The notes under the pieces were generated by a model. The model ran no database searches, was not told the origin of the DNA, and saw nothing but the letters and a program-made list of their open reading frames with translations. From Lingula anatina (taxonomy: Eukaryota > Animalia > Brachiopoda): a DNA stretch of 64,000 nucleotides. Below, one piece after another: positions 359 through 35,562 of the stretch. Numbering within the stretch: position 1 is the stretch's first letter; the number at the start of each line of letters is the position of its first letter. The translations under genes were made by a program, and so were the position numbers. The stretch covers positions 535,721 through 599,720 of the forward strand of contig CM120648.1 in the NCBI GenBank assembly GCA_051362555.1, given 5' to 3'.

Positions 359-3300
359 CTGAATGTGACTGAATCTTTTGGACACTGAGTTACAGTCCTC
401 GGAGACGGCCACAGCATGACCTCTGCGGATTCGTGTCTTGTTCAGCTCTCCTATGTCACCTTGAAAGAATTTCAGCAAGATGCTATGACAGTCTTTAAGT
501 CTAGATTACATTTGAAATGCGATGCCCTTATGGTGCCTGTATAGCACCCCTAATACCCTTTTCACCCATTGAAATGATCGAGTTATTACCCTAATTTCCT
601 GATCAGCCTAGAATCTCTGTAGTAACATGTAACACCAGATCACAACACAAACAAGATTCTCTAGACCTCTCTTGTCTCTATCACCCTGAGCTTCAGAGAT
701 AACTTGACACTAACCTCTTCACTATAGCCTATCTTCATCGTGTCAAGTTACCTCTGACCACATTCGATTGCCCCCGCCGCCCGCCAATCAAATTTAAAGC
801 CCGCACTCAATGACTCATTGAACGATCTAGCCAATGAACGCGAACGAGTCAAAGCGCGCTTTGTTCAAATCCGGACCAATCACAGATAAACCTGAATATC
901 AGGGACTTGCCGTAACCTGTGGGCAGCACGCAAAATACATAATCCCTCAGTAGATAATGATGCAGGGCCTCAAACTGCTCTGGTTTCAATTCCGATATAC
1001 TCATACTTTGCAAAGAATCAAGAGAAAACTTAACACATTATTTTACATAGTCACTCGTAGGAGACGCCATGCTTTCTTCGTGTACGGTTATGCACTCGGA
1101 ACTACTCGGATGTCTCCGCACTTGACAATAACTTTGTTGTTTGTATGGAGCTTGCGGAATCAGCCGAGGATTGCCGATTGACGGTCAACCAATCAGCGTT
1201 TTCACCAATTTTTGGTGAAAAATTTTGAAACTTGGATTCGATTGGCTTATATAAACTAGGTCAAACTATTTTCGTCAGAGGTAACTTGACACGATGAAGA
1301 TAGGCTATAGTGAAGAGGTTAGTGTCAAGTTATCTCTGAAGCTCAGGGTGGTCTCTATAAATTTCACACATAATTTTTTTCCAAGTCTTTAATTTATCCA
1401 CATTTGGTTTAAAAATGATCATTTCATAAAAATGGTTGATTGACAGACAATAATAATTATCCAAATTTCAAAGGTTAGAGTGACCTTCAGTCACCACTTA
1501 CCCTGTACTATCACATCACTGTCCACGTAAACAACACGACCCTGGAGATCAGGCAACAAAGTGGGAACAAAAAATCTAGCATACACAATCTGAAATATCA
1601 AAATAATAAATTGTTATGTGCTCATAAAGATGGTAAAACTCAAATCAGGCACCAAAGTTGGGAACAAAGAACTGAGCACACACTGTTCACATTTCTCACT
1701 TGTGGCTTGGAAAACAATGAGGTGAAGACAGTGAGGACATTCAGAAGTTGAACTGCAGACTAACAGTTCTGTGGAACAAGTATGGCCAGACCACAGAAAA
1801 GCAGAGCAGACTTATACGCTGATGGTTTCCCTGCCTCTGCACTTGCCATTAGACAGATTAAATCACAGTTCCAATGTTTAATTGGTAGACTCCAATGTTT
1901 AATTGCTAGACCCCTGCAGGAATGGCAGGTGTGGAGGCGAGGGGACCATCAGCAGATTAGTCAGCTCTGCTTCAGTGTGGGTCTGCCATATTTGATCCGC
2001 AAATCTGTTATTCCGCAGATCAACCAGTTCTGACTGCACTCAGAGGGAAAGTGACAGAGAGACAGAGAGAGTTGGAGAACTTACAGGTCTACTCAGCTCC
2101 TCTCTTCCTCCTCGTAACTTTATCATGCCTTTGACTAAGCGTTTATTGAAGACCAACAGCTCATAGTCTATCTTGCTCAAGGAAGTGGCTTGAATCCATG
2201 TCCTGTAATTTAAAAAAGGACCAAAAAGTCTTTTTAACCAATAATCATCAACATCTTATGCAACATCTTATGCAATAAAAAAACATCTTATGTCATAATT
2301 ATATGAGTTTTAATTCAATTCCTACAATTATGTCATCAACATGACACATCAGTGAACAAGACTATATGGAGTAATGGTTGAAAGCTCTTTCATAAAGCTT
2401 TTAAGGCTGAAGCTCTAGTTTTGATTCTGTGCAAGATGCGTAACAAAAATTATTGAGAGTCCAGTTTGAAGAAAAATTTCCATTCTTTATTTCAGTCCTA
2501 CCTCAAATGTTTGGCACAGTCTGTAGTTGTGACCAGATGAAACTTTACAGGACACTTGGCATTAAGGTGAATACTGTTCACGGCTGCTATCATCCCTCCC
2601 AACATGGCACTATCAGCTGTGAACAGCACATGGGTGGGCTGTCCTGTGCAGTTGCCTAGCAACAGCTTACTGCCCCCTGGTGAATGTTTTGTAGACATTT
2701 CATCTATGATTTGAGGGAAAGCTGAAATATAAAAGTTTCCCCTATAAGGTAATGACACAATCTTTTTAATGGATAAAAATTATCCATCTTTCAGATACAT
2801 TTCTTCTGATTCATAAAAATTATGTACCAAATAGCATTACTGGTGATTTTATAGCATAAAATAGAATTATATGGAAGCCTGCTTTAAAATTCTGTTGCTT
2901 CCACTCAATAAGAATATTCTAATTTTCAAAAATATGACTTAAAGATACAGTATCAGCAAAACACAGTTTTCTACCATTGAAGATTTTGAGACACTACCAT
3001 ATGGGTGTGTGGTATAGGCCTGGGTGTGTGGTGTAGGTCTGGGTGTATGGGTGTGTGGTAAAAGTCTGGGCGTGTGGTGTAGGTCTGGGCATGTGGTATA
3101 AGTTGGGTGTGGTGTAGATCTGGGCATGTGGTGTAGGTCTGGGCATGTGGTATAAGTTGGGTGTGGTGTAGGTCTGGGTGTGTGGTGTAGGTCTGGGTAT
3201 GTGGTATAGGTCTGGGTATGTGGTGTAGGTCTGGGTATGTGGTATAGGTCTGGGTATGTGGTGTAGGTTTAAGTTTGTGTGGATGTTAAAGAACTGTTAC

Positions 3301-3774
3301 AACTAGTGGGTATGCGGTGTGAAATGGCTCACATCTCTTAAGAGATCTCGTCTTCTTGGCCCCAGGATTCCACACATAGAGAATGACAATGGCAGTGGCA
3401 ACCACCAAACACAGGGCCACTGAAAGACAATGTGTAAAATGCACACACTCGAACATTAAGATACAACATATATGAAATAAAACACAGGTATTTTAATATA
3501 CTGTAATAATATGACGGAATCATGAATATCTATAAATGTATCAATGTTACTATAATCGATCCAATTAGCCGCAATTAGCGGACCACCTTCGAAAAACACT
3601 TCTGGAGTGTTCTCTTTAAAGGTCTGAACCAGTCTTAACTGGTCTACTTTACTCGGTGATTCATCTAATGATTGATCTGGCAGTATCGCTTTTATAAATA
3701 AAATTACTGTTTTAGTATGTAAACGAACCTTTTCTTGGAGTTATTCTAGGAAATAACATCTTGCAAGCCACCAT
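359..3774 (-). CDS. GLT8D1: Glycosyltransferase family 8 protein, GLT8D1/GLT8D2-like (5' six exons; 3' end lies beyond the left edge of the window)
   Basis: Exons 3774-3729 (MVACKMLFPRITPRK), 3419-3333 (TM anchor VALCLVVATAIVILYVW), 2721-2502 (HVLFTADSAMLGGMIAAVNSIHLNAKCPVKFHLVT), 2202-2085 (TWIQATSLSKIDYELLVFN), 1589-1502 (IVYARFFVPTLLPDLQGRVVYVDSDVIVQG, containing the DxD motif) and 459-359 (DIGELNKTRIRRGHAVAVSEDC). All are GT-AG bounded and frame-consistent. Motifs match GLT8D1 as I recall it (FARFYLP...YMDDDVIVQGD...GHAAAFSEDC). Confidence 0.9.
682..1350. mobile_element. Non-autonomous DNA transposon (MITE), 669 bp, with perfect 77-bp TIRs and an 8-bp TSD
   Basis: 682-758 is the exact reverse complement of 1274-1350 (CACCCTGAGCTTCAGAG...). 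GTCTCTAT flanks both ends (674-681, 1351-1358). An 8-bp TSD with CA termini fits the hAT or P superfamily. Confidence 0.92.
3003..3268. repeat. Minisatellite, ~20-bp unit (GGTGTAGGTCTGGGTATGT-like)
   Basis: About 13 imperfect tandem copies in a GT8 gene intron. Confidence 0.9.
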
Positions 3775-4032
3775 TTGTTTTCTGATAAACAGACGCCGGG
3801 GCTTTAACGGCGAATATCACGAACACTCGATCGTCATGAAGGCAAATATTCGTGGCACCTGACCAAATTGTAAGTCGCCATCTTTAGCAATACCCGTATG
3901 TGTCTCATTGAAAACGAGGCAGAGGGGAATTCCTTACTAAAAATAGAACAACGCTCGAAATCTTGGTGAAAGGGATTTGACGGGCTTGGGCGAAATAGAG
4001 GTAACCCTCACCTATCCAGCTTCTGGGAATAA

Positions 4033-4067
<35 letters not shown>

Positions 4068-4699
4068 GGTTAATTTAACAGTTGTGATAGAATATTATGG
4101 CTGGATTTGCAATTGTTGAGATAAACTAATTTGTCTAGATTTGTAGGGCTAATCTAAAATTTTCGTTTCTGTTATCATGTAGATCTAGAATTTTAGTTGG
4201 ATTTTATAACGGAAAACATTCAAATTTTCGAAAGACAACTTACAGATTAATTATCATGAAAGTTCCACTTTCGATATATGTAATCTTTAATATATACAAA
4301 TGCGTTTAAATGAAATTCAAACCTCACAGCCGCAGCAGACGCGCTGTACGTACTCAGACGTACTCAGTTGTCCCCCAAGGAGTGAGTAAGAAGGAAAAAA
4401 AATCATTTTTCAGAATGAATTTTGGAACTATTCAAAAAGCAGCAGCAACGGATATACCTTATCTTATATTTATTATGACCATCCAACATTAAATAAGCTT
4501 TGCTGGTCTGTCTAGTTCAATAAACGTCAATCAAAATGAATCAGGAAATACGACATAAATCCCACACGAGGCACGTGCAAATCCATAACGGAAAAAAAGT
4601 GTAACATTGTTCAGACAGCGTTCAGTGCAACTTATCAGAGTATTAAGGCAGCTAACAAAATTTTAACAACACTGCTAACGTCCATGTGAATATCTGCAT

Positions 4700-5908
4700 C
4701 TAAACATGTTTGCGCAGGAAATACATGACCTTCTCCACCGCGTCATGGGTGTTATTTGCAAGATAAACGGTATCTAGCAACGATGGTGATTGCCAGGTTC
4801 GGAAAAAGAATTCCTGTTTGTTCGTTTTGCTGTTCATTAACACTGACGGTTTGTTCAACAGGATACTCAGTATGTGCCCATGTAGGCGGTCCGTAAACAC
4901 GACTCTTCCACGTGACAGCAAGGCCAGCCCCATTACTGCTTGGTCCAATGAATCCTCAAGAAAATATTGTATAGAATAGGTCGAGGTATGATTGACAGCG
5001 CTGGTAACACGCTCTGGCCAATCAACGACCAGAACTGATGTGTTGCTAGGGAACACGGGAACATTTTTCAATTTACTAGGAATTTCCCAATCTCTTCTTT
5101 TCAAACAGACAATGTCGTACGATGGAATGTAGCTGCCGAAATCCTGGAATCCGACAGCGAACGCGGCGTCTGGTACAAGTTCAATGGCAGTGTTCCGAAA
5201 ATATTGTTTCGTCACGGAAAAAGACGGACTATCCCGAAGTGTGATCACGGAGTCCGCGTGTCCGTCAAAGAGTCTTGCCCACTCCCCAATACTGCCACAC
5301 CTACTGTGGTCAACTACACATGAACTCACAGGAAACATGAGAATCCGATTACTGGGAAAGGCTCGGAATGCTTCTTTCAGATATTTCAAATCTATCCCAG
5401 AACCAAGGTATCCTCCCCCAGCTATCAGAATGACCAGATCTTTGCCTCGTTTTACCTTGCTGAAGGCGCAGCGCGGCATAGAAGGGTTAATACACATGTA
5501 GTCAATGGTAGTTATGTTAAACCAGGATAAGATCGTCCTCTCTCCCCAGAGGATAAAACGGTCTCCGGTGTTACTTGTGTCGAACACATTCACCAAAATT
5601 GCGCGCTTGAATCCGGTGAGGTATTTCTTGAAGACTTGGTACTGGCGTCTCTGCATGTCACTTATGAAGATTTTATTAGGCCGTGCGCGGTCCGCGGTGG
5701 ATATATCCTCCTGGGTAATGCTCACTTTCATGTCGCGTCTTGATTCATATTCCAGCAGTGTATCGTGATCAAGTGACGAGGAAAACAAAGAATAAGGATA
5801 CTCTTCTCCAAATGTTCTAACCGCTCCACGCCGAAGGCTTAGAGCCAGGAAAACCATAATGGCCACGGTGCTTACTGCTATTGCCAGTTTTCGTGACCGC
5901 AAACGCAT
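4700..5908 (-). CDS. Polysaccharide pyruvyltransferase (PS_pyruv_trans; EpsO/Pvg1-like), type II membrane protein with no coding introns
   Basis: The 421-aa ORF probably starts at Met20 (5908, giving 402 aa: MRLRSRKLAIAVSTVAIMVFLALSL signal-anchor). Family motifs appear in order: NTGD...W.GE, GGGYLG, TLRDSPSF, LVPDAAF, KRRDWE, GLALLSRGRVVFTDRLHGHILSILLNKP, K..FFRTW. Confidence 0.88.
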   Translation of the reverse strand: MRLRSRKLAIAVSTVAIMVFLALSLRRGAVRTFGEEYPYSLFSSSLDHDTLLEYESRRDMKVSITQEDISTADRARPNKIFISDMQRRQYQVFKKYLTGFKRAILVNVFDTSNTGDRFILWGERTILSWFNITTIDYMCINPSMPRCAFSKVKRGKDLVILIAGGGYLGSGIDLKYLKEAFRAFPSNRILMFPVSSCVVDHSRCGSIGEWARLFDGHADSVITLRDSPSFSVTKQYFRNTAIELVPDAAFAVGFQDFGSYIPSYDIVCLKRRDWEIPSKLKNVPVFPSNTSVLVVDWPERVTSAVNHTSTYSIQYFLEDSLDQAVMGLALLSRGRVVFTDRLHGHILSILLNKPSVLMNSKTNKQEFFFRTWQSPSLLDTVYLANNTHDAVEKVMYFLRKHV

Positions 5909-7060
5909 GGCGTGGTGATCCGTCGAAGAGGGATTATGACAATGAAAAAAAAAAAAGATCCTCATGTGCCTTTTTCAATCCTTAGATTTTATCACCATAA
6001 ATCTGCCTGTGAAATTAGTGCTGTAAACTTTAACACTCAGACACAACAAAAATTCACTAACAGGTTTGGAGGACATTGCATAGACAAATAACCGTGCAAA
6101 CACAATAGATTGTATACCCGGAGGGCGTCTTTTCAACATAGGTTTTGAGCATGTTCAAATACAGTACAAATCCATCCGCTGTTCATGTCTTCATTTAAAT
6201 ACGATGGAAACGGGGGGATTTTATACGCTAAATCTGTGCGTATAATCGATGTCAAATACGATATTAATACGTACCTCTTTATGCTAGGTGTGACAGAGCC
6301 TTTATTCGCGTCCCTTAAAGAGAGTGGGCGTGCGTCATATCAATAGTACAAACTTCACAGCCTAAAACAACGAAGTAACCTTCAGAGGCAACCTAGACGA
6401 AGTATCAAAACACCCGAAACCACGTAAAACTAAATACTGGCCGCTGTATACTATATGTGGAAGCCATATGAATTGGAGAAAGTGTGGAAGAATCTGCATT
6501 GCAAGAGAGAGGCGGCTTTGAGTTGAATGAGTGTGCGTGTGCGCACGTGCGTGTGTGTGTGTGGAGGAGGAATTTAATCACCCATTGGGTGGTACAGTGA
6601 ATACTTTCGAGCACTACAGGAGGTAGGAGCCTGAATCAAAAAGAAGCTTATAAGAAAAAAAGCCTTCCCATGGGTTAGAAGGTATAATATTGTTACGCAA
6701 AGACGAAGAGTTGTTTTTTCTACTAGCGAATTACTATAGAACGGCAAATTTAGTGTCTTCAATATTTATTATTTAAAACTTTTAAAAACCAAATTCTATT
6801 AACAGAAAATACGCTCGCAATTATGGAAATCGTTTGAAACTATACCAAGGGACACCTATTAGACTAATATACCCTGTACATAAAAGGCCTGACAAAGAAA
6901 CTTCAATATTTCAACTCTCTTCTGAGTTGTAAACTGTGCTGTGGCTAAGTACATAGGTTTGTACAGAGAGGAGCATTAATGCAGTAGATTAGCAGCATGA
7001 TAGAAGCATGATTCAAATATGCTAATTAGCTCCCAAATCGAAGCAGATTTGAAGCATGTT

Positions 7061-7119
7061 TGCAGTATGATTGCAGTAGTCTACTGCGGTTTGCAGTATG
7101 ATTGCAGTAGTCTACTGCG
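7061..7119. repeat. 31-bp-period tandem duplication containing a small hairpin (GCAGTAG-T-CTACTGC)
   Basis: TGCAGTATGATTGCAGTAGTCTACTGCG at 7061 and 7092. Confidence 0.8.
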
Positions 7120-8161
7120 CTGGAGTATCTACTGCGTTTTCGTGCGGTCTCTCTCTCGTTTCATTCGTCCTCAGTTACACAGAGATCGACTAAAACTGTT
7201 GAGAAAACGACCGGTTATAAAATGTATTAACTTAAACAGATGCAGGCACGTTATAGTCTTCACTAGGGACTGGACGTCACACTAATTTACATCTGGATAC
7301 TTGGCTTCGCTTACCAAAAAGGTCAGTTGATAAAAATTAATAAAATCTCCGCCATTAGACACAGCTATTGGCTGAAGTCAAGTCAATGCAAAGATGTGTT
7401 GTTGCCTTTGCAGGTGATATTGTTAGTTACAAGCCTAAGCTTTGTCGCCAAACGTGCTACCTTTCGCCGTCCAGTTAATTGTACACCTGGCTTCACCTCC
7501 AACAAACGCCAGGTGATAACAAACGATTAAAGACTCACGCCTAAATCACTGTCATTAGTGATCTAGCTGATATGACGGGGTATTGTTAAAGCCCGCAGTC
7601 TGCTTAATCAAAGACGTTTATTGAACACTTATACGTCCGTGGTTTAATTTCTAAAAGGCGATAAGCCCTGATTCTCGCCTGCTCTCGACCAGATAAGGCC
7701 AATGGAGCGTAATGTTAGATGAAAAGGTGTGAAATGAGTCATTGTGTAGGTTAAAGTAAACAGTCTAGACTTTGATTAACTACGGGGCGTCACGGGTTCT
7801 CTGGGGGTGGTGTGAACGTCGGGTTGGGGAGAGGAATGGGGGGGGGGACGACAGACTGATGAGTCCGGTGTCACATTTACTGGATTGAGTGATAACCAGA
7901 CGTGTGTATGGAACTACGTGGAGTTTTCACACCACTTGAATACTGCCTCCAGCCGCTATCGCCAGTGGCCCAGTCATAACCTGAGAGCTCAGGATTGTAG
8001 ATCTATTTACACGTCCTTAAAGGCGTTAATAAAACACAAGAGCATTGCCAACAATTTTTACAGTTTGTGTTGTCGTGCCTTCTGATATCAGGGGCTTCTT
8101 ATGTAGTATACATAAAGTATGAGCGATGAAATAATTTGGTAACAGACTACCACCGCATATT

Positions 8162-8945
8162 GGGGGTCCGCCATATAGATAAACGTCCCAATAAAATATT
8201 CGCCCCGATAGATACGTCTCTATACATACACGTCTCAATAGATTTACGTCTCGTTAAATTTACGTTCCGATAGATCCACCAACAGATTCCTATAAACCCA
8301 CGTATCTTTAGATCCAGGTACCGCTAGATCCATCTATGAAACATCGTAATCGGCTAAAAGGCCCATATCAACTTGCGTTGTGAAATTTAGAACACATTTT
8401 TATGTTCTTTTTTGTTTTGTTTTGTTTAGAACACATTTACATGTAAATTCAGAACACTTTTTACGTGTTCGAATGTTGCATTTTGAGAACGCTTTAAACA
8501 GCGTTCTGACGCTAGAACAGTAATTAAGCGTTGTGAAATATAGAACACACTTTTGTTCTTTTTATGTTCTTTCACTGAGTATTGTGTGAAAACGATCTAG
8601 TAGAATAATATATTGCTGACTGCGTACTGCCGTTTTAAAGAAGTGCATTTTATGTACTGAGTAGTATACCAACCATATTGAGCAATAGTGTACGTACCTG
8701 TAATGGATCTATCGGTATTTGGATCTAAAAATACGTGGATCTATAGGTATGCGGATTTAAAGGACGTGGGTTTATGAGGACGTCATATCTAAAGGAACGC
8801 AAATATATAGGACAGCAGAAAAAAATCGGATCTATCGGTATTTAAATCTAAAAAGACGTTTTTTCCGTTTTTCCTTTATGTATCTATCGGTAACGGGAGT
8901 ATAGGGACGTGTAATATTTTGGGACTAAATTTTATCCGTACGTAC
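8162..8945. mobile_element. Degenerate non-autonomous element with long imperfect inverted arms and a 9-bp TSD (Mutator/foldback-like)
   Basis: CCGCATATT at 8153-8161 and 8946-8954. ~8300-8333 is an imperfect reverse complement of ~8703-8736. The centre has GCGTTGTGAAAT.TAGAACAC direct repeats (8375, 8528). Confidence 0.6.
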
Positions 8946-9230
8946 CCGCATATTGTCGTTGTATTCTATTGTGGTGTTCAACATATGCTGACTTTTCACA
9001 TGCTGTGATGTTAAGAATAATGCCTCTCGGCCTGTACTGGACTTAGGTTTAATGTGCCGTGATTTAAAATTCATATTTTTTTTTATGAATGCACTTCCCC
9101 TTAAACTTCACCTGTTAAAAATGGGGGCGTTCTTCTTGTAGTTTGGTACACTCAGGCTTGAACGGCCTTATTCTCACAAAAAGATAGGTTTTATTATTTT
9201 ATGATAAAGTATCAATATCATGCCAAATAT

Positions 9231-9389
9231 CAGTGGCGGATTTGGGGGAGTGTCAGGGGGATCCTGACCCCCACTTCGATTTCTGATAAAAAACGCATCG
9301 AAAAATCTGAAGGGAGTGAGGGTCGGCATCGCAATTCGAGGCCTATCAATCCCTAAAAAACCGGACACCCCCTTCTGTATCCGCCCCTG
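9231..9389. mobile_element. Short MITE with CAG(T/G)GGCGGAT termini
   Basis: CAGTGGCGGAT ... ATCCGCCCCTG terminal inverted repeats and G/C-run subterminal inverted motifs; no clean TSD. Confidence 0.65.
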
Positions 9390-10596
9390 AATATTACAAC
9401 AGATGTCGTAGTATTGCCTTGGAAGCCGTACTCCAACCTGTCCTGAAAATGCCGCATACTGTTGTTTGTATACACGTGATTCACTGTTTGTTTGTTTGTT
9501 AGTAGTCGTCTATTATCTCGGCGATTGCAGGTTGCTGTCTGTTTACTGTTTACTGGTGTTAACACGTGGAATAGTGCGCCGAAAATCACGCCAGGGCATC
9601 GTAGGTTTCATCCTGACTCTGTTTTAAATATTTATTATCCTTCTGACACATATTGAGCGAGGGATAATTCCGTCTTCAGTTTTACCTTGGTTGATGGTCT
9701 TCTATTGTTTCCTGTATATGTGTAAAACGGCATTTCACGAGGAAGGTATTTGTAAAAACAGAGTAAAATGTTACATTCTTACAATAATTCTTAAATATCT
9801 TCAACTCAACTCTTTCAGTACAGAAAATTGGTTAGCCGAATTGGTTAATGAAATAAATAATAATCGCCCGTTTCAATAAAAATCAAATATAATCAAATAC
9901 TCCAGCACCCCTCCCCCCCTCCCCCTAAACCCATCATCATTGTTTCTGAGTCATACCGGGTAGTAATTAGCAAACAAAGCTTTTCCGCTTGTCTCAGTGT
10001 AAACTGAGACTGGCCTCAGAAGCCGACTATTGTTGTTGCTGGCTATAATCTTCAGGTCACCCGGGGACAGAGATAGCATCCTCTCTGCCACCTGTGACCG
10101 AGGAAAGAAACCAAACCTGTTTATTTAAATATGTCACACTCAGTTGCTGTTGGACAATGACGGCTTAATTGGTGTTTGCGTCATAACGTTCAGAGGATAG
10201 ACTACACAGCGGATGTTTTAATCCAAACAGAGCGTCTTCAGGGTCGGTTAAGGACACGCACACGCAGGACTTTCACCAACGAAACAACCAGTTAAAAGTC
10301 AACCTCGTGTCGTATAGTACAGACATCGACTAAGATATTCGAGTGCATGCGAACTTTTAAGTAATTGTTTATTGTCTGTACTGTGGGTCTGAAAGTCAAA
10401 GTTTACGCTTTCGCCTTCTATTTAACTGCAAGGATTCTGTAGTACCACTATACCGGAGTCTAAAGCCCCGAACGCGCACGAAAAGAGACTGCTTAAGTGA
10501 CAGTTGAGGACATCGGTGTGGATGAAGTATTTCAAACGCCTTGCCACGAAAAATTGAGAAGTATAAAAGTGTTCTGCAACCAGCTAATTTTCCAAT

Positions 10597-10868
10597 ATGG
10601 AGGGAGGTTCCCACAGTATTCAAGTAACAGAAAGAGAAAGACGAGAACCACGACAAAATCTTCGAGATCTAGAGACGGCCACCTTCAACTCCAAACTGGT
10701 GATAGCGTATGGATTAGTTACCCAGGTATTTTTTACCATGTTTTTTTATATTTAATGAAAGTTGATACGATGGATTTTAATGTTAAGAACCTGATGTATA
10801 GTTGCATAATCTTCGAGATTCTCTCTCTCCAATCAATCCCTGCGCTCCTGCTGTCTCTCTCTCTCTCT

Positions 10869-10921
<53 letters not shown>

Positions 10922-13900
10922 AAGCGATTATTCGGTAATAATTGCTGGTCTTTATACAACCTGAAGATTTAAGAACAAATTCAAAACAGTGATAAAAAAG
11001 CGTTTGTTAACGGTGTTTTAAATGCAAAGATGACAACGGGCAGCGAAGTAAAAGCGGCTCTATCGATTTTGATGGGATATTTGCAACATAAATCATACAA
11101 AGCATTAACTTAGCCATCCAATTAGGGCTATTACTACAGAACAAAATAGAATATTTATTGATAAAACACCTTGACATGTACGGTACAATCATCGGATTAT
11201 GGACATTACTTTTGTAAACGGAGAAAGTGTGAATTTGTTAATGTAGATTTACTCTCGCATAAAATGTCTTAAAGCTTCACGCGGCGTGATGCTGTGATTA
11301 ACATGTTAATGAAGGGTTTCTGCGGTGTATAGTCACAGTGAGACCGACACAGAAAACACTGGCGTCTACTACCTGGGGCCAGCTTTAGTCAACTGGATAA
11401 TTATCAGGTTTAGTTTACAAAAGTTTTAGCAGAATGTTAACGCCTGGCCGTAAGACCTGCTAAAGAACTTGCACCAAAGCAGCCCCCAGTTGGTAAAGCC
11501 TTGGATTTTACACAGAGTGATTAAAATTGATCATTATGCATAACGCGCATGTGCACAATATGTATTATTCTTACACTAAAAGGAAAAAGAGTCTCCACCT
11601 GAGCATATGAAGTGAAAAGCATGAAGTCGTTCAAGGATGTTGGCAAGAAAAACATATTGTTACATTATAGTTACCATTTTTACTTTTATTCAAATTCTTT
11701 CAGGATAACAGTGCGTTTTATAATTCAAAATATATCGTTTTTTTTTTCAATTCGAGATATTTTAAGTTTACATTATTTTAAAATATTCAATTTTAAATTT
11801 GTTTGATCACCAAAGTAAAATGTCTCTCCGCCATAAGAATATTAAAGGTGTGTAAATGTATGTAAATGACATAAAATTCACAGACAGCCAAAGTTTTATT
11901 TGGCATTATACAATAGAAAGAAACAAAATGGCTTAATTATACAGGTGAGGAATATCCAGCCGCGTGCTCCGCGACGCCACCGATCTCAAGATGTTATCTT
12001 CGGCGTCGCTCTGATAAAGCGAGTCCTTCTTCCGTCCACTTTAAGAGAATTCGTCAGGTGTTCGCCAGCGCAGTAAATATATGCAGGTGGTGTAGCCATG
12101 ATGTATTCACATCTGTAACGATGACTATCTAATCTACTGATTGCCGTAGATCACGGCAATGATGCCGACGTTGACTGAAAATAAGGCCTACTGATTAGGC
12201 CCTACTACAAAAAAGTTAGTTTTATGTTTAAAAAATCAGGTACATTTATACCCTTTTTTATCTCTTCTTCATATGTGGATTTTTTTTTATTTGTTGCAGA
12301 TAGCCGCTTGTATGACAGCCTTGATTATGCTAGTGAATGACGTTTCGGATAATGATGATGAGCTTTTCATGGACATTACCAGCGGCATCTTTCAGAGAAT
12401 TCCCGCGCTGACGTTCTGGATGCCGATTGGTCTATTACCCCCTACAGTGATTGTGGCCATCTGCATGCGAAAACCAATGGAGAAACGTGTATCAGTGTCT
12501 GCAATGGTAATGATAAATAAAAAATAATATATGATATTGATAGAAAAATTACGGAGACCCCCAATTAAAAAATTAAGCCTTGAGTTTTATTATGACAAGT
12601 TGTCGACAACCAAAGCATCGGTTGAACGAGCAGACTAAAAAGAAAATCACTATCATTTCTGCTCTGTGTGTTCATAAAATCATTGCCATCGATTTAAAGG
12701 CCTACTCTTTTGGTTATGTGATCAAACTATGCCGCAATCACCATTTTTCTCTCCTTCCTTAATGCTTGATCCTTTTTTTCAGATGTTTGTCATATTTTCC
12801 GGCTTTTTGGTAGTACTTGTCATCGTGTCGTGCATGAGTTCACATTTACTTAAGGATAAAGCCGGGGTAGGTATCGGCTAAGAAACACTATAGAAAAAAA
12901 TATAAGCATTTGTATGGGATGAGTGTGTTGTTTAATTCAAAGGACAGAAGGGAAAGAGAAAGTTTAAGAGAGATTTTTGTCTTGCGTACTGGAGGAAAGG
13001 GACATTCAATTTCTCGCACATGAGATTGACATATTCCGACATTTGTTTTAATCATTTGTTTTAATACTCCTTTTGTTTTGAAATTCACAGCGCTTTCTTT
13101 TTATCGATACGTGACCGTTATCTATTTCAAAGGGCTGTTTAAAATTGTTATTTCCTTATTTCAGACAAATGCTCTCATGCTGAAGGGTATGAAAACCTCT
13201 ATGTTCTATAGCATTGATTCGGAATACAAGGACGACATGAAAGTTTGGAACACGGTGCAGACCCAGGTGAGTATCTGTCGCTCCTAACACAATGGCTGCA
13301 ATTGTTTTTATTTTCTGAACTCAGCACATCACGGCCTGCGTGACAGGAATGGACGTCCGCTAGGAACCGTAGCCCATTCCCCATTACTTTGTAGAAGAAA
13401 CGACTCGCATTTCACCATCATTATACAAGGAGCAATATATAAAAACTCATTTCACCGTATTTTCAAATTAGCAAATTATTTTATATATATAAGTGATATT
13501 AGCACTTGTTTAACGCAACAAATCAACACATTCTTTCCAGTTTCTCTGCTGCGGAATTTACAATTCAAGTGACTGGAAGAGGTTAGGGGCGGACGTCCCA
13601 AAGTCATGTCTGGCGACCTCTTTTAGTCAGTGGGACACGATACAACAAGAGCCATACTATAAACAGGTTAGTGACCAATGAATGCGATTTTCGTGCTAAA
13701 ACAATAACTAGGCCAACTATCATTCGATAAAGAACGTAAGCAATAAATTGAAAACGTGGTAGACAATAGAGCTTGTAACGTTAGTTAAAGCATAGCGTTG
13801 TTGGTGGTAACAAAATGGACAATTTATACTGAAAACAAACAAACAAACAAACAAACAAACAAACTTTGTATCGATGCTTGACTAGAATTCTACGGGATGT

Positions 13901-14746
13901 TTTTAATTTAAACGTAAAACTTCTTTGGTCAAATATATGGATAACTTCCTCCGCATTAATATGACTTTTCCCGTTGTTGATGGTGCAAGTTTTTTCTTCT
14001 TCTTTCAGGGTTGTGCCACTGTGATCCGAGCTCAGTTGTTCAGTTACCTATCCACCACGTACTCATTCTGTACTGTGCTCATTTGTGTACAGGTAGGCAG
14101 TGTTAGATTTCACTCGTTTCATTTAAAATGAAGACAGTCGAAAACTTCGTTTTATCTTCACTGAAATGAATTATCACTTAATGCGATTAATGAAATCTTT
14201 TTTATGATCAAGATATGGCTGAAATGCGTGTGTAGTATACTGGTTTGTTAAAAATAACGGTCATCGTTGTCTTTTTTAATTGCCTATTAAACCTTTGAAA
14301 TTAATTTGTAATGGGCACAATAAGAATAATAAAGAAAGGCCTATACAAGCCTTTAAAAATATTTTATTATTTTAGAAATTTAAGTTAGATAAGCATTATT
14401 TTTGTTTTTTGTTTTCAAGCTTGGCATCTGTGCGCTAACGTGGGCCTTAATGTTCATGTCACGATATTGTCACGCGGACCGCGTGCGCACCTTTTGGGCA
14501 GACGACAAGTATTCCGATGGCGAAAACAGCGAAGATGAACTTCTCAACGGCGGCCCTCATTATACGACATACGGGACAACGTTGTTAGGCGACGCCACAA
14601 GTTCCGCAGAGAAAATTCCCATGCCAGACATTAGTGGACATTCTATCAATACACCAACGCCTCCCAGGCCAGGCTACCAATCAGTGACGATCTCATATTT
14701 AGTGCCGGACGGGAATTCATTCCGTGCATTTGCCACTGACTTTTAA
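10597..14746 (+). CDS. Divergent tetraspanin-family protein (7 coding exons)
   Basis: Phase-0 exons 10597-10725, 12300-12506, 12783-12866, 13165-13266 (..KVWNTVQTQ), 13541-13666 (FLCCGIYNSSDW...VPKSC), 14009-14092 (GCATVI..TM4) and 14420-14746. Four hydrophobic segments; CCG, PxSC and GC motifs of the large extracellular loop. Confidence 0.88.
10853..10919. repeat. Compound (CT)n/(CA)n microsatellite
   Basis: Direct reading; tetraspanin intron 1. Confidence 0.95.
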
Positions 14747-14998
14747 TAAAATTTATCTTGCACAATTAACTCAGGTACAGCTCTCTTCATCCCAGATGTA
14801 ATGTTTTTAGCGTTCATATCACACCTTGCCTGTGGACGTCTGCCCTGTATGTCTTTGCGAACATTCCGCAGCTTTTGTTATAGGTGTCTCGTTTTCCCGA
14901 GCTCATTCCGAAAATGTACATTTGTGGTTGTAAATATCTTGTTTTACGCAAAAGGTGCTATTTTTGTATATGGAATTAAGCTAGGATTAGATAGTCAT

Positions 14999-15216
14999 AG
15001 ACTGGGTTTCCACAGATTTAGATCGATCCATCTGGATCGACCTAACTCCCTGGGGGTTCACGCTAAATTGCTGTCAGCCGAGCGCGCACGAAAGTTAATT
15101 ACTGCCTTACAGCTTTAAGTAGGCGGGACAGACATTTAAGCCAGCTAGGCTGACAGCAGTCTAGTGAGACTCCCCAGGGGGATAGATCGATCTAAAAATC
15201 TGTGGGAATGCAGTCT
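14999..15216 (+). mobile_element. MITE, copy 1 of a family also present at 36.2 kb
   Basis: Imperfect TIRs (AGACTGGGTTTCCACAGATTTAGATCGATC / GATCGATCTAAAAATCTGTGGGAATGCAGTCT). The internal sequence matches the reverse complement of 36176-36393. Confidence 0.8.
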
Positions 15217-17750
15217 TAGCCGCGGATAAGTTGTAGCTAGGTCTGTGTGTATGATAGTTAATTTTTTTTATTCACATTATAATCTTTTACATTATAATCT
15301 TTTAGTTTTTCCCTTCAGTCCAATAGGAATAATGTTCCGAGTTTTAAGAGCAACACATGTTTATTGTCCTTATCACGTTAGGAACAGTTTATAATACACT
15401 TAAAGAGCGTTATTGCGTTTATGTTTCATATCATTTTCGCAAACCTTTGTTTTCTTCTTCAAATCAGAATCTTCCTATGTCATACATATATGTTCAGTCC
15501 TCTCCGAAACTCGCAAGTTTTAAGATTGCCAAATTCATCGCCCTCTGGTTTATTACACCCTGATTAATATTAGAATTGTGAGTGAAAGTGCGGTGGATTT
15601 TTTTTTTTTTTTTTTTTTTTTTTGAGTCCCTGTCTAGTATTAAGACACTTCGTTAACGGTATTGAATCTGGGAAAATATTTGAATTTTACAGACTCTGTA
15701 TTTCTTAAAATATATATATATTTAATTAGTACATTCGAATTAAGTGGTACCTTGTAGGGTACCTTATAGTTTTATTTTATACAGAAAAAGCATCACACAT
15801 GCTACATTGAAATATATATTTAAAAAAAATTTTTTTAATTATGTATCTGTAAAGTCCATAATTTTCCCCATTGAAGAGATCTAATCAAAACAGTATACGT
15901 CACAGTGTCACACAACGTTTAAGGGACTGATGTATTCACCAGTGTGGTTAAATTTATCTCCCAGTATATGTATCACTATGTTGTATGAATTGCCCAATAT
16001 ATATGCGAATAAACAGTTTGTTAAATCGAACACCGATTTTCATTTCACTACAGAACTTTCCTCGATCCATTTCACCGTCCTCGGGATATACGCCAGAATA
16101 ACGGGTAATAGAACGTGAGCCCCGTCTTTGATGTTACTATTTTTTAAGCGGGACATGTAATCTAAACTATAACAAAGTTATAATAATAGTTGAAATTACA
16201 GGTGTTACAGCAGTTTCCACCTGTAAAAAATTAACATAAAAAACAAAACAAAAAATGAACACAACAAAACATATTTGGTCCCTTGACGCGTTTTGATTAT
16301 CTCGTCGCAGAATGGGGTTCGTGAAGGAACCGTTGGATCTGTTCTGTTTGGCAACCAAGCTTTGGCTTCAAGAGATCTTGATAATAGGAAAACAGTGTAA
16401 GCAAATTGCAGACCACTTACCCTGTGTTCAAAGGGGAAATTTGAGCAAATTCTCGAAGCGTATATTCAAAAACTACAGGGGGTTTGATATGAGAAAAGAA
16501 CTACTCTTTGTAATTCAGGATGATAAACAAGAACACGTATCATTTAAATTTAATATACACTGTGTATATTTAGAATTAGTTACAGAAGGAAGAACTCAGC
16601 AGTCAAGAGAAAACTTGGCGCTACTCCGGTGATTTTACTCCAAATGTTCGAATTTTTCTAATTTTTCTTTTTACAATTATCATACGATATTTCGGAGTTT
16701 TAATTAAGAATAAGAAAATAATGAATCGAAAATATTTTTTTTTTTTGCAGTGTCTATTTCGACCAATCCACAATCTGCGTTTAATAACATTCAGCAAAAA
16801 GATACAAACGCAAAAACTAGCTCTTTAAGCGAAAATTAGGAAAATACACGTTTCCCCTTTTTAATCAATGATCTTCTTTTGATGGTGACATAACTTCGCC
16901 CGACATGCCCGTAGATTTTACAGAGACAGCCGTTAGAAACAGAATTATTGCCCCAAACTTCTCAAAAGGGTGTCTTCAATAAGCGCGCCCCATGTGCTAA
17001 TTCATCACGTTCACCTTTGCTGTTTATCACCATAATGTCTTTCAGACACTGCCATTGTTCAGGTAATTCTTCCACGCTGGCTTTTCCCCAGCAAAGAGGG
17101 GTAGATGCTTGGAACGCGCTAGTCGAGCCATTCCGTGGCGTTCTCTGCACGGAGGGTAGCGTTTCCGGGGAGCGAGTGAAGGTACAAGCAGTTCTTGCAC
17201 GCAGGGTTTAGGTAAATTATAAAACAAGCTGCATTGCTCTGATAAAGAATTTCTACACTATCTTAAATCTCACATTTTTTTCATTGCAAGTGCTACACTT
17301 AAACGATGCCAATTATTCTGCATAGTGATTAGGCTTTGCCTTTCGGGGATACCGATTGTGAAAGAAAGCGCTTTCTCTGCTTTCAAAAACAAAAACGCAT
17401 TTATATTTCGTATATTATTAGAATTTAGGTAAAAATATACAAGGGAACATTTTCCCGCAACTAATTAACTGTGCTTTTTCTCCGATCGTTTTGCAAAGCC
17501 ACTTTCTTAATTTACCTTTTAGAACTTGTATTTACGAGCAATTGTACCGTCAAATTATTTGCTTTTCTATATTTCACTTCTAAATTTCACATTTTCAGTA
17601 AGCTTATTTTTGCGAAACTCAGTTGAAAGTGAAATCATCCGAGCAGTTCTTAACCGTTCGTTTTACCAAGTTACTAGCTTAATCTATTATTCCGACACTC
17701 GTTCTTACGAGAAAATTGTCATGTTTTCTTTTTTCACCTCACCAGCCAAG

Positions 17751-17932
17751 ATGACCGCGCTGATGAAGACCATCCTGTTTTTCCTGGCCACGGTCACACT
17801 GGTACTCATGGTGCAGTCGCCGCTCCTGGTTCGCTCCTCCCCACAGCTCAGCTCCCAGTATTACGAGGTTCGCCGCTGGCTCCTGTGTGTTCACTGTCCT
17901 CCTAAGCAGTGTAGGAGCTATTACTGCTACGG
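17751..17932 (+). CDS. Secreted Cys-rich peptide family, member A: first coding exon (downstream exon uncertain)
   Basis: Acceptor CAG at 17743-17745, then ATG at 17751: MTALMKTILFFLATVTLVLMVQSPLLVRSSPQLSSQYYEVRRWLLCVHCPPKQCRSYYCYG. Signal peptide present; ends GG|GTGAGT (phase 2), as do members B-D. Confidence 0.8.
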
Positions 17933-20418
17933 GTGAGTAGAACAGTCTCTATTCAGGTTGCAGACGGGGGGAGGGGGGGGGGTTGACAGGAAGGCGGCTA
18001 TTTTCTTAACCGATCAAGATATATCAGCGTCATAAATATCAATAAGAAAGGTTATTTCAACAGCTATTCATTTTATTTCATATCATTATTATGTAATGGT
18101 TATAAGGAAATATAATATTATTATATAAAAAGATAGCCAAGTTCTTTTCACCAGCCCCTGTCTTCAGCCTTAAGTCCTTCCTGGGACCCGTTTTACAGAG
18201 GAAGAAGAAAAAAGGAACAAGGGAAAGAAAAAAAGTTGCGTTGATATTTATTTTAATATTCTTGATTTTATATACAATAAAGAGCAAATATCAAGTCTCT
18301 GACGCGCAAACTACCTACTCAACGTTTTTTCGGCTTGGAAGTTTAACCCCCCTGAACTCGTGAAATATTGGCTGTGTACTGTGCGTTTTTCGATCCTCCC
18401 GCAAGATGTCGCTATGTACTCAACACACCATACTGATTTTGACATTGCACGGTACGTTGGAGTTTCCTTTGATCACGTAGCCTCTGTCAAACCCTGAACT
18501 GTAAATGACTTTATAATTTGATAGAAAAGTTAGTCGTTTTTAAAGTGACTTAACGTGATGGTTTACGCAGGAGGCAATGCATTTCGACCCCTTAATAAAC
18601 CAGACCCTTTGATGAATGGTCTACGCGTCATGCCTTATAGGTAGAAAAGTATTAAAAATAACTGTATTAAAATTAGATTAAAAAACAGTTATTCTCTTTA
18701 GAAGCGATTAATCTTTTAAAGCCACCGTCTTGCAAGATACAAAAAAAAAAAAAAAAATAATAATAAAAAAAATAATAATTTCACAAGTTGAAATACAGTG
18801 ACCAGTTCAGCATTAAAGGTTTGAATGGAGACTTTGCCATTTAATTTACTTTACGTTTATTGTCTGTAAAAGACCCATCTAACATATACAGGTGCTAATT
18901 AAGGAACTGTAACAAAGATTCTGCTCTTATTAGATTCATAGAATAGGGTCAACGTGACAGAAGTGGGTCAATATCTCGGACGGGGTTTATCTGTACAAAT
19001 CAATGGAAGCCGGGTGCTGTATCTCAGCGGATTATCTCAATTAACTGCTGATTTTTTTTTGTTACAATCACAAGTTTCCAGTTATTGAGAGTTATATATT
19101 CGCACTGGCTAACCGTTCTTATTTTCATTATAATTTTCGTCAAGGGAATATTTTGGCTATTTTTTTGGTGCCAATAGCCTGGAGGTATTAGTTTGCCGAT
19201 GTTAGATTAATTGTATGATTACGACCTATTAGCCTTCTGTTGGCTCCAATATTCAAGCACAACGGAGATATGTGTAAACGCATGGTTCCACATTAACTGT
19301 TGCCCTAGTATCGAGTATGGGCGCCGTCAAAGTTCAAAGGTCAAAGACAAACATGGCGCTTCTCTCGTGCATTTTACTGTTGTGCAAACAAATAAATTAC
19401 AACAACTGTCATGTGTAATGGTTCAGAGGATAAAATACTCCCAGTGTCACGAAGATTAACGAAGCCGTCACTCTCGGTGGTCTTCCGGTCCTGTGATAAC
19501 TGTAAAGACTGGCTACAGACTTCACTGGGGCGATGTAAGTTTTTGCAGCTGCGCACACGGGTTCTGTTTTCCCAGCGCCAAAGAACTAATCTAATCCACT
19601 GGCATAACGTAAGTGGAACGAAATGGTAGAGTTGCGTCTGAGGCATGACGCCATTCATTCCATTAACTTTTTGTGTTCAGGCGCATCCAGCTCCGTTATA
19701 ACTAAAACCGTAGTTAGACTGTCTGCAGGAGACGGACGTTTTCGCTGGGCTCAGTCGCTATGTTATCACAGAGTTAACAAAGGGTGGGCATTTTATCATT
19801 GCGACAACTGCAACCAAATTATCCACTTTTTTTGCTTTAGTTTTAAAACGGCTATAGATAAAAAGGTGCTTTCCACAGCCTGGGTTTCGTTAGCGCTTTC
19901 ATTGGCGCGTTCTTGCGCGACTTTGCAACTGATATGCGTATCGGGGAAATTAAATCGTTAATTTCCTTACAGCAAGATGAGATTACATACGTCATTTATT
20001 GTGAACGACAACGTAAACTGTTTGAACTTTCAAAGGGAGGGAAAATAATCAAAATATCCGCACGAAGTTCGGTTGCAGTAAGGCTTAATAGCATAAAAAA
20101 TAGCTGTTTCAACTGATTAAAATTTAAGATGTGCATACTTCTTCAACTGTTGAATTAATATTGGCAAATGATGATGTACAGCAAAGGTAACTTGGACAAG
20201 GTGATATACCTGCCAAAATACTCGGAATGATTTTATCTTCATCATTGCTCACCCTTGTGGGTTTCTCAAATTGATGATTTGAAAATAAAACAAAGACATG
20301 GAGCTTTCTGGCAAGCGCGTTCTTTAAAAAAGCCATAGCATTTCAGGGGTTCTCTACGTGAGTGAAATGACCCGGCGGGGTCGAGCTACTTAATCGCTCG
20401 TTTTCTGCGTTTCTCATT

Positions 20419-28979: not shown

Positions 28980-29441
28980 CTATCCAGAGCGGGATTGACT
29001 GTTCTGATAGTTCCACAGGTAGAGACGGTACAGGTAATTGGAATCTGAAGAACCCGATCCCTTTCCTTTGCTTCCACGTCTGAAGTAGTAGGGCGGGTAT
29101 GCGTAGTTAGCGTGTCGGTAGTAGCTGTACCAGTTGTATGGATACGTACCAGGAGCGGAGTAAGGGGCGGCGGCCTGAGCCGAGGCAGAGTCGAAGCAGC
29201 TGCAACGTGCCGGATCACAGGCGACACTGGAGAAGAAAAAAAGCAGATCATCCAACAATGCACATTTTGTGGTGTCTGTTTTTTTTTATTTGCTATTTGC
29301 GTTTTTTTTTACCTTAAACTGCGCCAGAATTCAGCGTTTCCAGGTTATCAGAATTAGCCATATTGTTTTAGACTACTTTCCCAAAAAACCAGCCCCCCAT
29401 GTAGCCCGCCCACACGCACACACACATGCACTCACGCACAA

Positions 29442-33073: not shown

Positions 33074-35562
33074 ACTTCAGCTGGTCTTAAATTGTTCTCA
33101 TTCTTTATATTATATCTGTTTATTTTAATACCACTAGATGACATATCTACTGAATATTATTCATGGTTGTTATTCGTTAAGCGCTGCGCTCCCTCTGTCA
33201 TTGTCATTTATCTAAATCTTAACCTCTGTACCTTTATCAACAATTCACTTTTTAAAAATGTGTAAAAACGTGTATCAAAATAGCTTTCATACTATCATAT
33301 CTCGTAAACCCAGCGTCGGGTAAATTACCAGTGGCAAATGCCTTAACCTTTCTTAAAGCAGCCTCGTCAGCAGAAGGAAAAAAAACGCTCTGGTTACTAC
33401 GAGAAGTTAACCAGTAGCGTTGGGTAATTACACAGTGATTAAGTCATTCCGAAGAGAAAGCAGTTGTTTTCGACAGCTGCCCAAGTCAGCGTGCCAATCT
33501 GTGGCTACAGTTGGTATAGGTTTACTAATTCAGGGCAAATTACGAAACGGAATCGCTCATGATAGAGGTGAAGTATGCAATGATGTGTTTAATTAAGAAC
33601 TCAGTTGTACTTTGAACTCGTCTGATAGCTAAATAGTTCAAGAATTCTGTTTTTGGTACCAAACGTCTGACTTAAAACAAAGGTGGGTCTTAAAACTGTG
33701 ACGAGTCTACAGGGATTGCGAGAGAGAGAGAAAGAAAGAGCGAGAGAGCGAGGAAAGTGTGTGTCCGTCTGACTGAGAGAGAGAGAGAGAGAGAGAGAGA
33801 GCAGAGAAAGAACAGAGAGCCATGTAACCAACCAAACACTTATTCTCATTACCAACATTCCTGGCATCTCTACCACGTAATCACATTAGTTATTTCATTG
33901 CCGTCGTCCGGTGGGGTTCCCATTGGAGCTGACAGTAATGGCTTTTTTTGTGACGGACTCTTTTAAAAATAAAACCTTATCCACTTCTAACTACCCCGGG
34001 AAAAAACCTCTACCTACGAGTCATTGACAGGACGTAAGCAAACAAACGCTGTAATTCTACACAAAAAGTAACGTTCACCGTTCGCCTTACTGCTATCACA
34101 CTCATTATGGTCTTGTCTGATATAAATGAATTACCTGTCCAAACTTTGCTCTGTCACATTTAATTGTGTTGACCTCAGCCCACCCAAATTTAAGTATCAA
34201 TTCGGTTTATATGTTAGCTAGAAGCTGGGGTAGTTTTTTTTAAACTGACGTGAACAAATGGTATCTAATTGTTCGTTGCAACAGCAGTAACTGGTGCTTT
34301 CTGAAAGACAGCACGCTTTTGATCGAGGGCATGTGACATCATTTCCGTAGTAAAAGCACTGGGGTAGGATCTCCTCGATTTGACCCCGAAAATCCCAGAT
34401 AGGATTCTTTTTCGTAGCTGGCACGAGTTGGTTGTGTAGCTTGGTTAAATCTGGTTGTGATAGCCGTAGGCCCCGAAAGTTTGCACCGCTCGCCCAGGTT
34501 GAGGTGACAGCAGAGATTGCGGTGCGTTATCTTTCTCAACTGAAACACTACACCACTTCTCGGCAAACCGCAAAATCGGTCTTCCAACACAACCGACGCC
34601 CTTGGGTTGATTATGGTCTGACGTCATAGTATGACGTCATCACCACCCTAAAAATCGTATGCAATGTTTATCAAAGTAAGTATTCTGGATTATAATCAAG
34701 TGTTTGCATTTGATGGTGGGAAGTATTCTCAAATGTTTAAAGGTTTGAAACAGTACATGTGCGTGGTCCTCAACCTACGGCGGCTCTATTTTGAATAATT
34801 ATGCATTGACATGACTTAAGGTTTGAACGTTTTTTTTTTAGTTCAGATGAGGATGTTTAGTCCTGTTTATTTCAATGACTGAAACACATCTTATAAGCAA
34901 CTCTGCATCAGGATTACTTATAAAACAGGGATACGATATTATACAAAAAGTTTCAAGGCGAGAACTGACAATTTACATATTTCTGTCCTCTCAAAGTTAT
35001 ATAAGAATTTGAAAACAGATATCGAACAGTCAATAAATATAATGGTTATATTATATAACTCAGTTTAATTATTTTCGTACAAGTGCGCTTTCTTCTCTCT
35101 ACTGAAGTAAAAATAAAACAACTTAAATTCAGGCTGACATTGTACATGTATTTGAGACCTCTTTCGTTCCTTCACATGCCTTAAGCCATTCACAAAACTA
35201 TGTATAAATACATAATCAAATAGTCCTCATTCGTGCGTGAACGACCCAAGCTTCGGCGAAGTTAACAAGTGATTAAACAATTTTTCAAGGTCGGTAAAAT
35301 AAAGTACTTTTAAAATAGCAAACTGGCGAGATAAAAAAGTCTGCAATTTGACTTTTCACGTTTGCACTTTTAAGTATTCGCGAGCGCAATTTAGACGGTA
35401 TCCCGATTCTCTTCAGTTTAGGGTAGAGTGGATTTTTCTACGTAGACGTTAAGGTAATGGAGCTAGTTTGTGGTCGTCTTAACACGTGTTAACATTACGG
35501 TGTCTCGGCAGGTTGTGAAGTGGTGCCATACGTGCTACTATGTGGCTGGCACAGTTCCAGGC

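Follow-up and report, generated by a model that had tools for sequence, protein, structure and literature searches.

A brachiopod gene of the Pvg1-like pyruvyltransferase family groups with mollusc and protist proteins, many of which carry a fused TPT domain

The closest described system is Pvg1p of S. pombe, for which one report (PMC4872226) describes a D106A mutant that is nearly inactive, contacts of R217 and R337 with PEP in a model, a gating effect of H168 on the acceptor, and a dependence on the Golgi PEP transporters Pet1p and Pet2p. Pyruvylated sugars are likewise described from animals, as glycolipids in the nerves of Aplysia kurodai, as 3,4-Pyr-Gal in a phosphonoglycosphingolipid of that species and as 4,6-Pyr-Gal in sponge glyconectin, and the passages on them in the two sources name no animal enzyme for these glycans (PMC6801904, PMC6994554). 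It should also be mentioned that a 2019 sequence survey kept proteins of 250-600 aa only (PMC6801904), a length filter by which fusions with a phosphate-translocator (TPT) domain are dropped.

The gene described here lies in a 64,000-nucleotide stretch of Lingula anatina DNA (the window, meaning the whole stretch analysed) and is a member of the Pvg1-like pyruvyltransferase family, with a predicted GT-B fold and the three residues proposed as catalytic in Pvg1p. Its features are the following.

4700..5908, minus strand: Pvg1-like pyruvyltransferase open reading frame, single exon, 402 aa (translation, Pfam and structure match)
5834..5890, minus strand: signal-anchor helix, residues ~7-25, with a basic N-terminus before it (KD 2.24; helix 2-28 in the AF2 model)
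5687..5818, minus strand: stem, residues 31-74, pLDDT <50 in the AF2 model
4706..5680, minus strand: GT-B catalytic domain, residues ~77-401 (AF2 model, Foldseek)
5561..5563, minus strand: D116, equivalent of Pvg1p D106 (alignment with 5ax7)
5234..5236, minus strand: R225, equivalent of Pvg1p R217, a modelled PEP contact (alignment with 5ax7)
4886..4888, minus strand: R341 in TDRLHG, equivalent of Pvg1p R337, a modelled PEP contact (alignment with 5ax7)
4469..4474, minus strand: AATAAA, ~230 nt past the stop, a possible poly(A) signal that may also occur by chance

The frame runs through 402 codons without a stop, and its product matches Pfam PF04230 (PS_pyruv_trans) with 67.1 bits (E 3e-18), the gathering cut-off being 25.3 bits. 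The motifs follow one another as NxGD (113-116), GGG (164-166), RD (225-226), PD (246-247), RxDxE (271-275), DW (296-297), TDRLHG (339-344), K364 and W372, so that the intact single-exon frame of about 402 aa with EpsO/Pvg1-family motifs in order, which the original prediction had read from the letters, is real. An alternative start at an upstream in-frame ATG (5965) would yield 421 aa and is judged unlikely, since a poly-T run would be read through and the context is weaker than the GCCATG at 5908. In sequence the product matches the Pvg1p structure 5ax7 with E 4.1e-15, and the AF2 model (pLDDT 82.6, from a 26-row alignment) finds Pvg1p as its best solved match in Foldseek (E 2e-18, TM 0.82 by target). 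The residue equivalences given above derive from the 5ax7 alignment (offset 53), and D116, R225 and R341 are invariant, save for one gap at D116, across the 284 of 308 rows that passed a motif filter and were aligned, a count to be read with the knowledge that this filter itself demanded NxGD and DRLH-type motifs.

The only hydrophobic segment of the product begins at residue 7 (KD 2.24) and is followed by the low-confidence region 31-74, which bears out the added signal-anchor and stem of the original prediction, and from this we infer a type II topology with the N-terminus inside and the C-terminus in the lumen. Four N-glycosylation sequons lie in the catalytic domain (131, 289, 306, 385), and the notion of a host-encoded, Golgi-type member of the family is supported as a prediction from sequence and model. 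The product shares with Pvg1p its family, the predicted GT-B fold, the equivalents of D106, R217 and R337 and a putative type II anchor, but structural identity is only 21%, and it differs by a Leu at the H168 specificity site, a Tyr for Asn in GGGN, a Val for Gln in PQS and extra Cys pairs; the positions of a strict Pvg1p-orthologue pocket (His168 gate, GGGN/PQS) are in other words occupied by L174, Y167 and V194. Bacterial proteins of the EpsO/EpsI, WbbZ and CsaB types have the PF04230 core motifs in common with it (Foldseek match to 6x1l, E 1e-9), but the rows of the bacterial side are mostly anchorless (133 of 138) and lack both C147 and a TPT fusion, and the CsaB equivalog TIGR03609 gives 15.4 bits against a cut-off of 213.1.

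A word-based search with the frame gave 60 matches of 25-33% identity whose names, where given, are bacterial and of EpsI/EpsO type, whereas an exhaustive search gave 2,679 matches led by one of 39% identity and 177 bits, compared to 95 bits for the best word-based match, and the best relatives are eukaryotic. Organism names, available for 10 of the 30 clusters looked up, are those of gastropods, Vitrella, Piridium, Physarum and Darwinula, the last represented by P0106, a protein on a 10-kb contig that groups with Physarum and whose label may reflect contamination. When a Lottia domain was used as query, the named rows among the best 120 of 296 matches were molluscs of at least 16 genera and one bacterial MAG label; vertebrates were absent among these named rows, the query being a mollusc protein, and sponges were absent among the named rows of relatives. 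The MAG label is that of P0298 (Candidatus Thiodiazotropha), which shares 48% identity with the Lottia domain and may likewise be mislabelled through contamination. A profile search started from A1 yielded 41 rows, few of which had not already come up in the other searches. The matches listed for the Lottia domain include an Aplysia californica 'pyruvyl transferase 1', a pipeline label also given in Haliotis and Plakobranchus, and Bulinus has a 'pyruvyl transferase Pvg1', so that the family has already been labelled automatically and the expectation of annotated homologues in other invertebrates proved correct. Copies in Pomacea have adjacent locus tags on one contig. No functional study of these annotated mollusc proteins was found in the literature, nor was any account of an animal pyruvyltransferase gene or TPT fusion, in a search whose coverage takes in few subscription journals; a term search of the main text of the Lingula genome paper (PMC4595640) gave no 'pyruv', and its supplements may list the family.

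Both a FastTree phylogeny of 211 rows and an IQ-TREE phylogeny of 77 rows divide the sequences into a eukaryote clade and a bacterial side, and in a more careful tree of 50 rows, for which 27 of the 77 were left out, this split is supported by 100/98. The query there forms a clade with 11 named molluscs and 10 rows without organism name (97/90), outside of which fall the chromerids and then the Physarum group; the gene hence groups with a mollusc-and-protist family and not with bacteria. These trees assume a root on the bacterial side, contain long branches and are missing Pvg1p and most animal phyla. In pairwise comparison Pvg1p reaches 165-175 bits against the Physarum group and 136-151 bits against three bacterial proteins, which is a hint only. 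Stand-alone anchored and stemmed forms are also present in the clade. The Lingula product, whose identity to four mollusc rows with names is 26-30%, belongs to a subfamily of its own and not to the expansion of named mollusc proteins. Two further membrane-anchored members, P0113 and P0180, fall among bacteria in the 77-row tree and possibly represent a separate eukaryotic acquisition.

Many relatives carry a TPT domain. By a model built from 15 fusions, it is present in 67 of 170 eukaryote-clade proteins, 101 of which came from the Lottia-domain search and were assigned by identity and not by tree, and in none of 138 on the bacterial side; likewise, in 19 of the 45 top matches, which were chosen partly for length, Pfam TPT stands ahead of the transferase. 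The fusions include Aplysia P0097, Physarum P0136, Piridium P0107 and P0144, automatic annotation places others in Lottia, Elysia, Pomacea, Patella, Ruditapes and further genera, and within the genus Aplysia stand-alone genes occur beside fused ones. In the ESM Atlas, a cluster of 60, reached through homologues of the Lingula product and of P0062, has PF04230 in 97% and PF03151 in 93% of its members, with Mollusca as the commonest group. Matches of the TPT halves to TIGR00817 stay under the cut-off of that model; the halves also match the solved translocator 5y78, and a Lys and a Lys-Arg pair aligned with that structure, which we take to be phosphate-binding, are kept in 57, 66 and 64 of the 67 fusions. 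The fused domain is the likely PEP importer. In S. pombe the Golgi PEP transporters, Pet1p and Pet2p, presumably TPT-family proteins themselves, are separate from the transferase, and the need they serve is mirrored by the fusions of the eukaryote clade; the fusion and the requirement of Pvg1p for such transporters are together the best indirect evidence of lumenal PEP use in animals. The TPT-domain tree is poorly resolved for the most part, with long branches, and independent fusion events are compatible with it, since it lacks an unfused outgroup; P0064 is placed differently in the transferase-domain and TPT-domain trees. Six sea-slug proteins, P0252, P0257, P0103 (Elysia marginata), P0264, P0265 and P0276 (Plakobranchus ocellatus), combine PF03151 with PF04230 and are named 'triose phosphate' or 'phosphoenolpyruvate/phosphate translocator, chloroplastic'. 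No literature treating them as TPT-pyruvyltransferase fusions was found, and caution is called for, as the sea-slug proteins so labelled are fusions of this family and not plastid genes.

The Lingula frame itself stands alone, although its nearest two rows, P0062 and P0063, are fusions. No TPT domain was found in the 64-kb window, either when 15 TPT halves served as tblastn queries (best E 0.75) or by HMM (best E 0.63), and since the frame furthermore has its own ATG and anchor, the idea of a fusion gene with this frame as its final exon was rejected. The query, P0062, P0063 and P0073 form one clade in the 50-row tree (100/100), and this small subfamily has the following peculiarities.

5408..5410, minus strand: Y167, Tyr in all four rows of the subfamily
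5327..5329, minus strand: V194, a residue other than Gln in three of the four rows
5297..5320, minus strand: C197/C204, a putative disulfide inside an insertion of the subfamily, the Cys pair being present in three of the four rows
4832..4834, minus strand: N359, Asn in all four rows of the subfamily

Elsewhere position 167 is Asn in 147 of 150 eukaryote and 123 of 130 bacterial-side rows, position 194 is Gln (148 of 150 and 125 of 130) and position 359 is Asp (143 of 150 and 106 of 130), while 279 of 280 rows outside the subfamily have a gap in place of C197; the position equivalent to the H168 gate is L174. The two motif deviations first pointed out, GGGYLG and NSKTNK, are thus both genuine and are joined by a third, PVS for PQS at 194, and the column counts make them conserved properties of the subfamily. 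That the odd residues are common to four proteins argues for an old shift in specificity rather than decay, and with the catalytic residues retained the sequences point to such a shift.

We consider it probable that the window holds an intact single-exon host gene for a predicted Golgi enzyme likely moving pyruvate from PEP to a terminal sugar as a ketal, the product of which would be a negatively charged terminal sugar and, as first suggested, might serve as an alternative to sialic acid. The N-terminus would lie on the cytosolic side and the C-terminal domain in the lumen, where D116 would activate the acceptor hydroxyl and R225 and R341 would hold PEP as modelled for Pvg1p. PEP would enter the lumen by way of a TPT-type antiporter, which is fused N-terminally in many relatives and which the copy in the window, probably derived from a fused form by loss of its transporter half, would draw on from another gene. 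Y167, L174, V194, N359 and the extra Cys pair likely make the acceptor, or the position of the ketal, differ from the 4,6-pyruvylated beta-galactose that Pvg1p produces, and expression would likely be confined to a tissue or stage.

Readings that deny the gene a place in the animal or in the family's own descent have to be weighed against this, and here the neighbouring gene comes into play.

1497..3852, minus strand: downstream neighbour, a spliced and expressed GT8 glycosyltransferase gene (RNA joints, Pfam GT8)

Its 5' end lies near 3852, ~850 bases beyond the stop of the pyruvyltransferase frame, it extends below 1497, and it shows four CT..AC joints in RNA and a Pfam GT8 match of 4.9e-6 on one exon, so the animal-type intron-bearing flank is there as predicted. 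That the frame is contaminating or mis-assembled microbial DNA could be argued from the fact that none of the contigs listed for run X1 reaches from it into the GT8 gene, but the depth of that run is flat (107-137 in bins of the frame, 108-113 in GT8 exon bins), its contigs cross both ends of the frame into the flanks, nine DNA runs from three studies contain 81-95% of the words of 4300-6400, and a divergent version including the 3' flank is present in a fourth study (run X10). The frame is host DNA, integrated among host genes, as follows from the matching depth and the nine runs, and contamination can practically be dismissed, in keeping with the original prediction. An independent horizontal transfer from bacteria into the lineage of this animal would agree with the missing intron, with the bacterial names of the word-based matches and with a patchy distribution among named rows, but it is largely refuted and must be regarded as very improbable: a constraint joining the query with bacteria is rejected by the AU test (p=0.0016), C147 is found in 137 of 154 eukaryote-clade rows against 0 of 130 bacterial-side rows, the GC content of 0.465 lies within the 0.445-0.477 of three host exons, and 80 named bacterial loci match at 23-32% identity only. 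A tree in which the animal-side rows adjoin bacteria is also rejected, though with less force (p=0.024), and these two tests together with the eukaryotic best relatives leave the suggestion of a 'microbial-type' gene acquired from bacteria by this lineage unsupported. Conversely, uniting the animal-side rows with the Physarum group, as the species tree would have it for Amoebozoa, is not rejected (p=0.146), so that a tree fitting vertical inheritance partly undoes the proposed horizontal origin, the separate bacterial transfer being the part that falls.

The remaining alternatives grant membership of the family and concern its function, and the more serious of them, though unlikely, is that the gene, having no transporter half, has fallen silent or come under relaxed selection and is turning into a pseudogene. 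RNA is near background, with three read pairs in six runs of which 6-26% each was examined: X12 and X13 each gave a single pair, in sense direction as judged from GT8, and X15 gave one of opposite orientation, whereas X16, X18 and X19 gave none (X16 and X19 being no test) and depth over the GT8 neighbour rises to 92 in X12; the RNA check lent the frame little. This alternative also gains from the long end branch of the query (1.3) and from the ~95 differences over ~1,140 covered bases between X10 and the window, and it counts against the favoured reading, too, that the query has lost residues near-invariant elsewhere. Among the 39 listed within the frame, 16 are synonymous, 23 nonsynonymous and none a stop, a synonymous share above the 22-27% expected, and pN/pS, computed from these 39 of the ~95 with two haplotypes or copies taken together, is 0.42-0.53 (binomial p 0.007-0.04 by transition weight), a value high for an enzyme. 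X10 contains two versions over 4650-5790 at depths near 2:1 (35.8/19.3; 42.5/15), which may be alleles or paralogues. Against relaxed selection it counts that the frame survives an 18-nt deletion in the stem (residues 34-40, read from a loose end with 24 of 30 letters matching) and a 6-nt deletion at residues ~171-173, next to the H168-equivalent site, while the 3' flank has six small indels within 26 nt, that the changes listed at T114, G166, L168 and G344 are synonymous only, and that three further proteins have the odd residues too, which makes these residues old. The synonymous excess, the lack of stops and the two in-frame indels show that the frame is under moderate constraint. Quite unlikely, too, is an active enzyme of changed chemistry, with the same fold and basic pocket and a donor or reaction other than ketal pyruvylation. 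Its appeal is that the otherwise near-invariant Asn167, Gln194 and Asp359 are replaced in the subfamily and that the fused sister P0063 has a degenerate TPT (S/K/N for K/K/R), but D116, R225, R341, H343 and K364 are all retained, and the other fused sister, P0062, has an intact TPT (K/K/R; TIGR00817 8e-9), which points to a PEP-like donor.

Returning to a pyruvyltransferase that is host-encoded and probably functional, the eukaryote clade as a whole may quite possibly stem from vertical descent with many losses, or with equal weight from an ancient transfer through a protist, and the assumed root, the long branches and the missing Pvg1p and animal phyla keep these two from being separated; a direct transfer from bacterium to animal seems improbable. 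The pyruvylated glycans of Aplysia and sponges are the class of product that the animal family would make, and it would likely supply the missing enzyme for the pyruvate-capped sugars of sea-hare nerves. A wider reading, which we hold to be evenly balanced, is that molluscs, brachiopods and probably other invertebrates possess an undescribed Golgi pyruvylation system built around a self-feeding fusion of PEP/phosphate antiporter and pyruvyltransferase, shared with slime moulds and chromerids and multiplied into tandem arrays in snails, that this system makes the nerve glycolipids of Aplysia, and that the gene in the window belongs to a subfamily, lacks the transporter and uses a new acceptor or sets the ketal at a new position. 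If so, one chain would combine donor import, transfer and phosphate export. The chemistry of pyruvate ketals on animal glycans has been known for decades, and the family offers named candidate enzymes, the proteins of Aplysia and of the snails Bulinus and Pomacea among others, so that it outweighs the window's own gene in importance. The enzyme type is already known; the animal family and its transporter fusion seem to be new, as does the divergent stand-alone subfamily.

Other fusions were encountered as well: P0224 and P0181 of the Vitrella cluster join a pyruvyltransferase to GT8 domains, and P0211 has two pyruvyltransferase domains. A functional link between the Lingula frame and its GT8 neighbour was considered because of the Vitrella fusion and is not claimed, since the match is confined to one exon (E 0.001) and expression of the two differs ~100-fold in X12. 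Upstream of the frame lie high-copy repeats at ~6950-7150 and 8150-8950, with summed contig depths of ~125,000 and 6,000-16,000 respectively against ~110. A fragment at 852-1037 (minus strand) has a weak DEAD-helicase match (E 0.016), and a hydrophobic multi-exon gene at 10229-19626 (plus strand), without Pfam match on the pieces scanned, has a plus-strand transcript at 10229-10500 in X12. Short Cys-rich, Pro/Tyr-rich exon-like pieces on the minus strand (28983-29285, 34221-34526, 39569-39940 and 40473-40688) gave no Pfam match and presumably resemble Shisa/VOPP1-type proteins. Finally, a multi-exon gene at 51844-62476 (plus strand) contains Sushi, HYR, Ephrin_rec_like and EGF modules, and its exon block 52978-56701 is apparently duplicated at 57254-60235.
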